Of a stretch of 64,000 bases of DNA, positions 40,601 to 43,600 are shown piece by piece (positions within the stretch are counted from its first letter, which is position 1; every line of letters begins with the position of its first letter). The position numbers were made by a program. The stretch lies in the NCBI RefSeq assembly GCF_048403405.1, contig NZ_CP183129.1; one strand, written 5' to 3'. The DNA comes from Escherichia coli. Lineage in GTDB: Bacteria; Pseudomonadota; Gammaproteobacteria; Enterobacterales; Enterobacteriaceae.

Positions 40601-43600
40601 GAAGGCGTTTGTTGACTCGATTTGCGACTTCAAAAACAAAACAAACTCCCACGTCATTCTCGTTACTCACTCGCGAAAAGGAGACAGCGAAGAAAAACCA
40701 ACCGGGAAAATGGACGTAAAAGGCTCTGGAGCGATAACAGACCTGACAGACAACCTTTTCATCATCTGGCGTAACAAGGCTCGCGAGAGAGCGTTACAGA
40801 GAGTTCAGAGTGGTGAAAAGATGTCAGAGAAGGACGAACAGCTACTGGCATCTCCGGCATCTGTTTTGATGCTTGAAAAACAACGTAACGGCGAAGGTTG
40901 GGAAGGTGGTGTCCCGTTGTTCCTTGACGAGCAATCGCACCAGTTCCTGCAACTTGAATCAGGATCGCCATATAGCTACATCGCCAATATGCCGAAATCG
41001 GAATATGACGAGGCGTGGAGACAGGAAAACGTGACGGAGTATTAAATGACCATCTACATCACTGAGCTGATAGCAGGCCTGCTGGTAATCGCAGGCCTTT
41101 TTATTTGGGGGAGGGTAAATCGTGGCTGAGTTTATGCTCGTCGCACTCAAATGCGTTGGCGTTGGATGGATTCTTCTGACGTTTTTTATTGTTCTGCATA
41201 GCTACATTCGCCTTGTGAATGACGGTAAAGATCCATGGTATACGTTGTTTGGCGCTGCATTTGTCTGGGTGATTATCGGTGTTATGCCTGTCGCTGTAGC
41301 AAAAATGGCGTGGCGTTTTGTGAGTTGAACTGAGGGTAATTATCGATGGACGAATCAAGAAAGCAGTTTGAAGAAAGTTGGTTGCGACGTGGAGGCGAAT
41401 CTTCAGACCTTATCCGTTACCCTGAAAATCACCATGAAATTGGCAGTGGTGATATTGGTGGTCAATACGTGATGGACGATGTTCAAGGCCACTGGCAAAC
41501 GTGGCAGGCATCGCGAGCAGCTATTGAAATAACCGCGCCAAAGTTTATCGACAGCAGAGAAGCATTAGCCAAAGGGTTTACTGTTGATTATTCCAATGGC
41601 TTCGGTGATGCAATGGATGCTTATGAGGAAAACATCCGCGCTGCTGGAATCAAAGTGAAGGAGTGAGCATGAGTCGACGAAGTAGCTTTTTGGGGTTTGT
41701 AATATTCCTGTCCTGCACTGGTTACATCGTAATCTGGTCAATTTCGAACATTGACCGTGGCTGGGAATATCTCATTGTAATGTTCTTTCCTTTGTTTCTT
41801 GGGTGGTACGCCGCAAGGTTGCTGGAAGAATGGGGTTACAGGCATAAAAAATAAAGGAGTATTCAGTGAAGCAAACAATCTTCCTCCGAACTAAGCAACA
41901 ACAGCAAGCCGCAATAAATGCCATCCTCGCAACACCACTCGATAAAGACAAGCCAGTCACCATCCGCATTACTGACTACAAGCGCAACCTTGACCAGAAC
42001 GCAAAATTTCACGTGATGCTGGCGGATATCGCTCGTCAGGTTCAATGGTGCGGCAAATGGTTAAAACCGGAACAATGGAAGGTTTTGTTGATTAGCGGTC
42101 ATGCAGTGGCAACAAACCTGGAAGCTGATGTTTTGCCCGGGCTTGAAGGCGAATACGTCAACATTCGCGAAAGCAGCGCGCAGATGAGTGTGAAGCGCAT
42201 GGCAAGTCTGATCGAGTACACAACAGCCTGGGCTATTGGTCAGGGTGTCAGATTTACCGACAGGAGGTACGAATGAGACGACAGCGACGAAGTTTCACCG
42301 ACATCATCTGCGAAAACTGCAAATACCTTCCAACGAAACGCTCCAGAAATAAACGCAAGCCAATCCCAAAAGAATCTGACGTAAAAACCTTCAACTACAC
42401 GGCTCACCTGTGGGATATCCGGTGGCTAAGACATCGTGCGAGGAAATGACAATGGATTATTCACAGTTAAGTGATTTTGAAATTAACAAGCGAGTGGCAA
42501 TTTGCTGTGGATTTGCTCCCGAAGATTGCGAAATAGCAAAGTTGGGAACATCAATCGTTGGTGTTGAGTGGGATGACGAAACTGGTTATGCAATAAAAAC
42601 GGTTGATTACTGTAAAAGCCCATCAGACGCAGAGCCGATTATCGTAGAGAACAGAATTGGCATTATTCCAGCGCCAGAAAATGGATTATGGAAGGCAGCG
42701 CATAGAAAAGTTGGCAGTGATAGTACCCCATATCATATGACTCAAGATGAAAACCCACTCCGCGCTGCCATGATTGTCTTTCTCATGATGCAGGACGCCA
42801 ATAATGCTTAGCCCATCCCAATCCCTCCAATACCAGAAAGAAAGCGTCGAGCGGGCTTTAACGTGCGCTAACTGCGGTCAGAAGCTACATGTGCTGGAAG
42901 TTCACGTGTGTGAGCACTGCTGCGCAGAACTGATGAGCGATCCGAATAGCTCAATGTACGAGGAAGAAGACGATGAGTGATTTCTCTGAGCTTATTTCCT
43001 TCAAAAAAGACAGAGAAGAAATGCGGACTGAATCTGTCTATTACGTTCAACACCGGAATAAACGCTCGGTGCTTGATCAGGAGCTGATTATTACCGGAGA
43101 CCTGGCATTCAGAACATATAAGGCCAGCATGGAAATGAAGGATTTCCCTAAATGTGGTTCTGAAAGAGAAGCCGCGTTAAAGCTGGCTGAGTGGATGCAG
43201 AGAATGGCTGCTGCAATTGAGAATTACTGGAGTGAACCATAATGGCTAACCTACGCAAAGAAGCGCGCGGCAGAGAATGCCAGGTACGTATTTACGGCAT
43301 ATGCAATGGCAATCCTGAAACTACAGTTCTGGCACATTACCGGATGGCTGGAATTTGCGGAGCGGGAATGAAGCCTGACGACCTGATCGGTGCATGGGCT
43401 TGTAGTGCGTGTCACGATGAAATCGACCGACGCACCCATAATCTCGACAACAAAGACGCCAGACTTTACCACCTCGAAGGCGTGATCAGAACGCAGGCGA
43501 TACTGCTGAGGGAGGGGAAGATTAAGTCATGAACGAATATCAGTTTGTGCTTCCATACCCGCCATCGGTGAATACCTACTGGCGAAGACGGGGAAGCCAA

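Follow-up and report, generated by a model that had tools for sequence, protein, structure and literature searches.

The slot between the tR2 terminator and ninB in a P22-like lambdoid prophage of Escherichia coli (assembly GCF_048403405.1, contig NZ_CP183129.1; the window is the whole 64,000-nt stretch of DNA that we analysed) holds three small genes, orf68, orf106 and orf61, which are independent accessory cassettes rather than one system, because their alleles and their presence or absence assort freely. They are probably dispensable delayed-early lytic cassettes, acting on targets in the host or in competitors, rather than toxins of the prophage. The slot forms the start of the nin region: the capsid and portal genes of the prophage are of P22 type, and CII, O, a primase-helicase, NinB, NinX, YbcO, RusA and Q are all encoded on the + strand, with CI the sole exception. 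The features to which the text refers are as follows.

39165–41045, + strand: primase-helicase (626 aa), upstream context gene; Pfam Toprim_2 (3e-12), AAA_25 and DnaB_C
41046–41129, + strand: ninA, 27-aa hydrophobic ORF (MTIYITELIAGLLVIAGLFIWGRVNRG) that encloses tR2; phrog_5907, E 1.9e-17, and HK620 annotation
41075–41108, + strand: tR2-type intrinsic terminator; terminator scan, RNA fold centroid and the aligned HK620 site annotated 'terminator tR2'
41122–41328, + strand: orf68, predicted 68-aa two-TM hairpin protein of the inner membrane; phrog_1165, E 1.6e-39, and hydropathy
41346–41666, + strand: orf106, acidic soluble protein, Phage_phiTE_015 family (PF26207); phrog_343, E 1.1e-30
41658–41664, + strand: left edge of the orf61 cassette, an AAGGAGT Shine-Dalgarno heptamer in the 3' end of orf106; loci carrying the cassette compared with loci lacking it
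41669–41854, + strand: orf61, predicted two-TM hairpin membrane protein, presence/absence cassette
41854–41860, + strand: right edge of the orf61 cassette, a second AAGGAGT that doubles as the ninB Shine-Dalgarno sequence; same comparison
41866–42276, + strand: ninB (136 aa), downstream boundary of the variable slot; Pfam NinB, 6.3e-54

The sequence-only reading had placed ORFs of 68, 106 and 63 aa behind the primase-helicase at the start of the nin region, and all three were found there on the + strand (41122–41328, GTG start; 41346–41666, ATG; 41663–41854, GTG), with the primase-helicase upstream and NinB at 41866. The 626-aa protein, named 'toprim domain-containing protein' in RefSeq, is taken as a primase-helicase because it combines Toprim_2 with DnaB_C/AAA_25 domains. 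The order was as claimed, but the ORFs do not follow this gene directly: a fourth small ORF, the 27-aa ninA, intervenes between its stop and orf68. The TAA of the primase-helicase abuts the ninA ATG (TAAATG), and the ninA stop overlaps the GTG start of orf68, which has GGAGG 7 nt upstream, by 8 nt. This junction is the sole true overlap; the others have gaps of 17, 2 and 11 nt and a Shine-Dalgarno sequence each. Translational coupling had been proposed for the three ORFs, but the arrangement is one of close packing and not of strict coupling.

ninA, which was present in 135 of the sampled loci with a dN/dS of 0.5–0.9 and which the HK620 annotation calls 'similar to P22 NinA', is a short ORF at the end of the replication genes with an intrinsic terminator inside it. 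The terminator consists of a hairpin at 41075–41098, with an 8-bp G+C-rich stem (AGGCCTGC/GCAGGCCT) and an 8-nt loop, followed by a T-run to 41108 (TTTTATTT tail). This geometry agrees with that of lambda, where tR2 lies inside the translated ninA (PMC4824070). The locus shares with the nin regions of lambda, P22 and HK620 a slot immediately behind the replication genes and ahead of ninB, a short ninA ORF with the tR2 hairpin ~30 nt past its AUG, stops and starts that are tightly packed or overlap, and delayed-early, dispensable genes. In the HK620 annotation, ninA and ninB alone separate the replication genes from the remaining nin genes; orf68 is present there without annotation, and orf106 and orf61 are absent. 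The three genes described here are extra cassettes in this HK620-type ninA–ninB slot. Four replication modules were found ahead of orf68, comprising the primase-helicase, a DnaB-type P, a lambda P-type gene with ren, and a DnaC-like ATPase; a role in anchoring the replisome to the membrane, considered as the genes follow a helicase, was ruled out by this diversity.

Two of the three proteins had been described as membrane-embedded, and hydropathy bears this out, with two hydrophobic segments in orf68 (Kyte-Doolittle maximum 2.38), and two in the 63-aa reading of the third ORF (2.08 and 1.66); orf106, with a peak of 0.24, has none. The phrog_1165 match spans residues 1–68 of the 68 in orf68, which is named 'hypothetical' or 'membrane protein' in RefSeq and was exactly 68 aa long in all 47 distinct variants. 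These variants fall into two allele classes between flanks that are 100% identical, with mosaic junctions at which complete identity surrounds a ~50%-identical core. For orf61, the AlphaFold2 model has a helix at residues 3–26, a turn and a second helix at 33–60 (pLDDT 73).

orf106 is of a different kind. It has a pI of 4.8, and its phrog_343 match covers residues 1–106, its full length. Across the tblastn match, orf106 showed 100% identity to WP_032199566.1, an entry that NCBI calls 'phiTE_015 family protein'. PF26207 is precomputed on all close homologues of orf106 (96–97% identical and below), the Pfam set that we scanned being one without this model. The family-wide motifs SRxQFExW, WxAWQASRAAIEIELP and AIxAAGxKVK are present in orf106; F8, W53, S56, R57 and G101, together with WQASR and AAGxKVK, did not vary among the 59 close and 77 distant members that were aligned, and orf106 has every one of them. 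More than 1000 representatives at 50% identity make this a large family, and its members also occur in other early-gene arrays besides the nin region. Within this conserved scaffold, orf106 alleles are mosaics in which two hypervariable inserts reassort freely, the pattern expected of a protein with an ever-changing binding partner. An AlphaFold2 model of orf106 (pLDDT 72) matched no fold in the PDB, a sequence-profile search of the PDB gave nothing (best E 0.78), Foldseek against BFVD returned uncharacterised phage proteins only, and a Pfam scan of the 77 distant members gave nothing. A conserved scaffold with two hypervariable inserts that recombine freely is typical of proteins in host–phage arms races, and screens for anti-defence proteins could reasonably include the phiTE_015 family.

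We read the three genes as delayed-early and lytic, not prophage-expressed, because of their position past tR2 in the pR operon. From lambda biology, genes past tR2 in this repressor-controlled operon should be silent in a lysogen. A consensus scan of 40700–42400 for sigma-70-like promoters gave 0 matches on either strand, against 2.3 expected by chance; such a scan covers consensus sigma-70 sites only, and a weak or non-canonical promoter could still drive expression in the lysogen. The terminator scan detected none between orf61 and ninB, the sole strong terminator being tR2, upstream of the genes, and Q lies ~3 kb downstream. The nin region of lambda is dispensable and belongs to the N-dependent delayed-early class (PMC10695390), and a tight interlinking of nin genes has been described (PMC8022706, preprint). 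The three genes are ordinary ones, already on record as 'hypothetical' genes of phages, and the dispensability of the region is long established. As members of the long rightward early operon (CII, O, primase-helicase, ninA...Q), they would be transcribed only when the prophage is induced or a cell is infected, once the phage antiterminator lets RNA polymerase pass tR2, and plaque formation would probably do without them, as it does without the rest of the nin region. The orf68 and orf61 products would sit in the inner membrane as unrelated helical hairpins with both ends in the cytoplasm, a topology predicted from hydropathy and charge only, and orf106 would remain cytoplasmic, as a small conserved alpha/beta scaffold displaying its two hypervariable inserts. 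During lytic growth, the hairpins may act on membrane targets and orf106 on a variable cytoplasmic target, in the host or in a competitor, as analogy with known systems and the pattern of variability suggest. No functional study of phiTE_015, PF26207, the PHROGs, the WP accessions or small nin-region membrane proteins came up in literature searches.

Among such known systems, lambda Ren lies in the same neighbourhood, between P and the nin genes, and is likewise non-essential, with a role in phage–phage or phage–host conflict: it counteracts Rex exclusion. Ren is a soluble protein of 96 aa and unrelated in sequence to the proteins described here, and it co-occurs with the small genes instead of replacing them, since ren lies directly 5' of ninA–orf68 in several E. 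coli prophages.

A narrower version of the delayed-early explanation is that the hairpins act during the lytic cycle, either in early superinfection exclusion or immunity, following the logic of T4 Imm, or in holin- or antiholin-like timing of lysis. T4 Imm is an early lytic gene, its product has 83 aa, and the class II holin S21 has 68–71 aa and two TM segments. The delayed-early position of the genes suits such a role, as do the size and two-TM architecture of their products; the length and hairpin of orf68 are those of the phage 21 pinholin S21, and T4 Imm, HK97 gp15 and P22 SieA are, like the predicted hairpins, small phage-encoded helical proteins of the inner membrane. However, we found no sequence or profile similarity to T4 Imm, HK97 gp15 or P22 SieA, and no similarity to holin, Imm or Sie families in general. 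With respect to class II holins, orf68 has the two TM segments, but its C-terminus (AKMAWRFVS, with 2 basic residues only) lacks the highly charged tail typical of holins, and the gene is not adjacent to an endolysin, the lysis cassette being far away, downstream of Q. This specific role is rather unlikely.

The slot hosts three unrelated families of 60–68-aa two-TM hairpins (orf68, orf61 and a third, 'C5'), among which hhalign detected no homology (probability at most 1.5%). The recurrence of unrelated hairpins in one slot hints at a recurring membrane-directed lytic function. A broader proposal, which we regard as quite unlikely, is that the tR2–ninB slot is a hotspot for counter-measures used in lytic growth, including two-TM hairpins and a loop-swapping phiTE_015 inhibitor. 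If so, the hairpins might neutralise membrane-embedded effectors of host abortive infection or block the entry of competing phages, and the phiTE_015 inserts might track rapidly changing host defence targets.

The sequence-only reading had instead put the small membrane proteins forward as toxin or exclusion candidates, a suggestion for which the searches gave no support. In its fuller form, one or both hairpins would be a toxin or superinfection-exclusion protein expressed from the prophage, for example one that blocks DNA entry, as P22 SieA, HK97 gp15 and T4 Imm do. Small two-TM hairpins would be apt for such a task, three unrelated families of them share the slot, and orf61 behaves like a mobile add-on cassette. 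A prophage exclusion gene must, however, be expressed in the lysogen; SieA and gp15 are prophage-expressed, whereas the genes here lie behind tR2 in a repressed pR operon with no sigma-70-like promoter match nearby. Morons have a promoter and a terminator of their own, and neither was seen at this locus, which argues against classing the genes as such. PADLOC defence models gave no hit at E ≤ 1 for any of the four small proteins, and Pfam, NCBIfam and PADLOC scans of these proteins gave nothing above noise; weak hits to T4SS_pilin, Acyl_transf_3 and antiporter-G (E 0.006–0.03) were rejected as far below the family cut-offs and typical of hydrophobic sequences. For a type I toxin–antitoxin pair, we found neither a promoter-like site on the opposite strand of 40700–42400 nor an Rfam match at E ≤ 1 in 40500–42500, a match that only a subset of the antisense RNAs of such systems should give. 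Expression of a toxin or exclusion protein from the prophage is thus very unlikely, and dispensable genes of the delayed-early lytic programme remain the reading that we prefer.

We also considered whether the three ORFs form one module resembling a toxin–antitoxin system, for example with orf106 as the soluble regulator and the two hairpins as membrane effector and membrane partner. They are adjacent, nearly contiguous and on the same strand, and 94 distinct ninA–ninB intervals, from loci sampled for orf106 or orf61, contained orf106 in 87 cases and orf68 in 72. Against this, nearly all combinations were seen of the two orf68 allele classes, the five N-insert and eight C-insert alleles of orf106, and presence or absence of orf61, and a test for co-variation of orf68 class, orf106 inserts and orf61 presence detected none. 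Gene order also varies, orf61 occurs without the other two, and elsewhere phiTE_015 genes, including those of the distant members, have no constant membrane-protein neighbour. Because the three genes assort independently, they are not a toxin with its partners; a single module is largely refuted and highly improbable.

Judged by substitution patterns and ORF structure, the three ORFs are real genes under purifying selection, which is moderate in orf68 (dN/dS about 0.35–0.5) and orf106 (about 0.55). The three tandem ORFs, each 60 aa or longer, account for 720 of the 821 nt; when the interval was shuffled 2000 times, three or more such ORFs arose in just 2 cases. Conservation across related prophages, which the sequence-only reading had asked to have checked and whose absence it would have counted against its candidates, was observed. 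The third ORF is present as that reading described, but its length is not: translation most likely begins at ATG 41669, giving 61 aa, rather than at the alternative GTG (41663) that gives 63, because AAGGAG precedes this ATG, the divergent homologue P0124 has the same start and phage annotation agrees. That any of the ORFs, and this third one in particular, should be non-coding sequence left open by chance is barely credible: RefSeq has no gene at orf61 in 40 of 40 sampled rows, and the family comprises only 4 clusters at 90% identity with close copies little diverged, but P0124 is 72% identical to orf61 at equal length, with its own ATG and Shine-Dalgarno sequence (dN 0.20, dS 1.03, dN/dS 0.19; third codon positions account for 22 of 48 differences), all other frames contain stops in both sequences, the orf61 Shine-Dalgarno sequence is strong, and tandem ORFs of this size are as rare in shuffles as stated above. 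orf61 is thus a well-supported gene for a small membrane protein that goes unannotated by RefSeq in the 40 sampled genomes.

Of 5,426 complete E. coli genomes, 194 carry the orf61 cassette, as do 4 of 50,697 phage records. In the window it lies between the two AAGGAGT heptamers; at loci without it, orf106 is followed by ninB within 5–8 nt. At other loci the cassette is placed ahead of orf106 or directly after a DnaB helicase.

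A lambdoid prophage has its early-right operon on the + strand from 36.6 kb on, with P22-type virion genes farther right. Three small genes, orf68, orf106, and orf61, lie in this operon between the primase-helicase gene and ninB:

36612-37325, − strand, CI repressor
37742-38023, + strand, CII
38197-39057, + strand, O-type initiator
39165-41045, + strand, primase-helicase, Toprim/DnaB-like, 626 aa
41122-41328, + strand, orf68 (GRAVY 1.21, pI 9.0, two hydrophobic segments)
41346-41666, + strand, orf106 (GRAVY -0.79, pI 4.8, no hydrophobic segments)
41669-41854, + strand, orf61 (GRAVY 0.39, pI 9.4, two hydrophobic segments)
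41866-42276, + strand, NinB, followed by NinX, YbcO, and RusA
44073-44696, + strand, antiterminator Q

The window also holds tRNA-Asn (GTT; 44971-45045) and tRNA-Thr (TGT; 45051-45126) between Q and the prophage lysis region, and a 2637-aa + strand ORF (19687-27600) upstream of the prophage.

The sequence-only reading had described three translationally coupled ORFs of 68, 106, and 63 aa, two of them membrane-embedded, behind the primase-helicase. The ORFs exist: in tandem on the same strand and each at least 60 codons long, they cover 720 of the 821 nt of the helicase–ninB interval, and shuffling this stretch 2000 times yielded three such ORFs just twice. They do follow the helicase, but an intervening 27-codon ORF (41046-41129; MTIYITELIAGLLVIAGLFIWGRVNRG), directly 3′ of the helicase stop (TAAATG), had been missed. 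This ORF matches phrog_5907 (E 1.9e-17), and its homologue in the HK620 annotation is ninA, with terminator tR2 inside it. A terminator scan and RNA folding place tR2 of the window at 41075-41098, as an 8-bp stem (AGGCCTGC/GCAGGCCT) followed by TTTTATTT. The hairpin lies ~30 nt past the ninA AUG and the ninA stop ~20 nt past the T-run; the same geometry is described for lambda tR2 within the translated NinA ORF (PMC4824070). The helicase stop is 29 nt ahead of the first hairpin base (41045-41075), near the limit of roughly 27 nt within which suppression of tR2 by a terminating ribosome has been reported (PMC4824070), so the extent of read-through into the three genes may depend on translation of ninA and the helicase gene. 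As for coupling, the genes from ninA to ninB are packed in the 'interlinked' manner usual for nin regions (PMC8022706, preprint) but are not strictly coupled throughout: the ninA stop and the orf68 GTG, which has GGAGG 7 nt upstream, overlap by 8 nt, and gaps of 17, 2, and 11 nt, respectively, separate orf68 from orf106, orf106 from the third-gene ATG, and the third gene from ninB, each junction with its own Shine-Dalgarno sequence.

The first two ORF sizes stood and the third changed. Close copies of orf61 are 93–97% identical and reveal little on their own. A 72%-identical homologue (P0124) has equal length, starts at an ATG behind GGAGGAG, and lies in a different context, directly 3′ of a DnaB helicase gene. 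The two genes differ at 48 of 186 nt, with 22 of the differences at third codon positions (dN 0.20, dS 1.03, ratio 0.19), and all remaining frames are closed in both copies. This comparison, together with the conserved ATG at 41669 and the use of the same start in the annotation of phage vB_EcoP-611R6, shows that orf61 is a real gene; the conserved start gives a product of 61 aa. As had been claimed, two of the proteins are predicted to be membrane-embedded, orf68 and orf61. An AlphaFold2 model of orf61 has helices 3-26 and 33-60 joined by a turn (pLDDT 73). The charge pattern suggests that both termini of each protein are cytoplasmic: orf61 begins with MSRRSS and has RLLEEWGYRHKK at its C-terminal end, and orf68 has K60 and R64 at its C-terminal end. 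The orf61 cassette occurs at ≥95% identity in 194 of 5426 complete E. coli genomes and in only 4 of 50,697 phage records; 0 of 40 sampled genome rows carry an annotated feature there, and the gap is also empty in three inspected RefSeq loci. A gene so well supported yet unannotated is of modest interest.

Neither strand of 40700-42400 had a sigma-70-like promoter match (2.3 expected by chance), and the terminator scan found no terminator downstream of the three genes, suggesting that they would be transcribed from the early-right promoter by read-through of tR2. The region had no Rfam match. In lambda, read-through of tR2 needs N antitermination and occurs in lytic development only, and the entire nin region can be deleted with plaque formation retained (PMC10695390); by analogy, the window genes are probably expressed only in lytic growth and dispensable for plaques. 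The small membrane proteins had tentatively been read as toxin or exclusion candidates, but toxin or exclusion genes acting in a lysogen need expression during lysogeny (PMC7067206), and the absence of a promoter match and the position behind tR2 argue against such a role. Nor did any of the small proteins match a PADLOC defence model or a Pfam or NCBIfam family. In lytic growth, the proteins may exclude secondary infection early on, as T4 Imm does, interfere with host defence effectors bound to the membrane, or adjust the timing of lysis. The earlier observation is correct after refinement, and its interpretation is supported only in part.

Among 106 related loci, orf68 occurs as 55 different nucleotide sequences and 47 different proteins, all exactly 68 codons long, in two allele classes that are ~95% and ~55% identical to the window copy. 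All divergence between the classes is confined to an internal core (about 41130-41265) where nucleotide identity is roughly 50%, and the flanks are 100% identical; the hydropathy pattern is the same in both classes, as is the loop motif VRLVxxGKD, and between-class dN/dS is 0.35. The family comprises 61 clusters at 90% identity, all unnamed, and its source-named members are all from Escherichia or Salmonella; 107 phage records carry orf68, including HK620, HK022, HK75, mEp213/235, Stx2 phages, and Salmonella P22-like phages.

WP_032199566.1, which PGAP names 'phiTE_015 family protein', matches the orf106 translation in tblastn with 100% identity over the aligned stretch; close homologues carry Pfam PF26207 (Phage_phiTE_015), and orf106 matches phrog_343 (E 1.1e-30). 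Its dN/dS is ~0.55. A very large family emerged from a profile search against 1.84 billion representatives (E≤1e-3): 1011 clusters, mostly 85–135 aa. In 77 distant members, the conserved order is M-x-x-SRxQFExW, a variable stretch, WxAWQASRAAIEIELP, a second variable stretch, and AIxAAGxKVK, with F8, W53, S56, R57, and G101 invariant. These members belong to other arrays of small early genes, and one of them adjoins an integrase; no membrane-protein neighbour was constant among the neighbourhoods inspected. In close relatives, the variable stretches form discrete alleles (at least five N-terminal and at least eight C-terminal) that recombine freely at the conserved segments. Two hypervariable inserts that can be swapped on a conserved scaffold are what one would expect of a binder whose target varies among hosts, and this modular architecture is of modest interest. 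Alleles of 118–125 aa (e.g. in locus L046) end in ...AGIKEKNFDEANNLPPN, reading out of frame through ~30 nt at the start of ninB; this peptide is also encoded at 41799-41894 of the window, in an alternative-frame ORF spanning the orf61/ninB junction. Many phiTE_015 homologues, P0012, P0045, and P0009 among them, measure 127–146 aa and carry ~35 extra residues at the N-terminus, Cys-rich in P0045, which may reflect upstream-gene fusion or a miscalled start.

For the assortment comparison, the related loci were collapsed to 94 distinct ninA-to-ninB intervals, among which nearly all combinations of orf68 class (A, B, or absent), orf106 N- and C-terminal alleles, and orf61 presence or absence were seen. 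The orf61 cassette is an insertion of roughly 197 bp; loci lacking it have orf106 and then ninB, 5–8 nt apart. The heptamer AAGGAGT brackets the insertion, as the orf61 Shine-Dalgarno on the left and that of ninB on the right, and relocated cassettes (e.g. before orf106 in locus L094) retain scars, namely 20 nt from the 3′ end of orf106 and 13 nt from the 5′ end of ninB. In other phages, the same slot holds C5, a third family of two-TM proteins (60 aa; MVNAFICSLFLVAIFHGF...IKYYW; L094 3253-3435 and 17 further loci), a family of single-TM proteins of ~107 aa (106–108; e.g. L083 2466-2792), and several small soluble proteins. No homology between the orf68, orf61, and C5 families was detected by hhalign; the gathering of unrelated two-TM hairpins in a single slot is of modest interest. 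Free assortment, the mobility of orf61, and the varied slot contents show that the three ORFs are independent cassettes in a recombination-prone slot, and they are ordinary, already catalogued accessory genes at the head of the nin region. A three-part module was rejected because alleles and presence or absence combine almost freely.

Among the 5426 complete E. coli genomes, 1997 contain at least part of the 901-bp region; the complete arrangement occurs in 95. Two 39.9-kb records filed as E. coli plasmids, NZ_CP146561.1 and NZ_CP146567.1, are 99.2% identical across 41000-41900 and probably represent an active phage with a circular genome, close to the window prophage.
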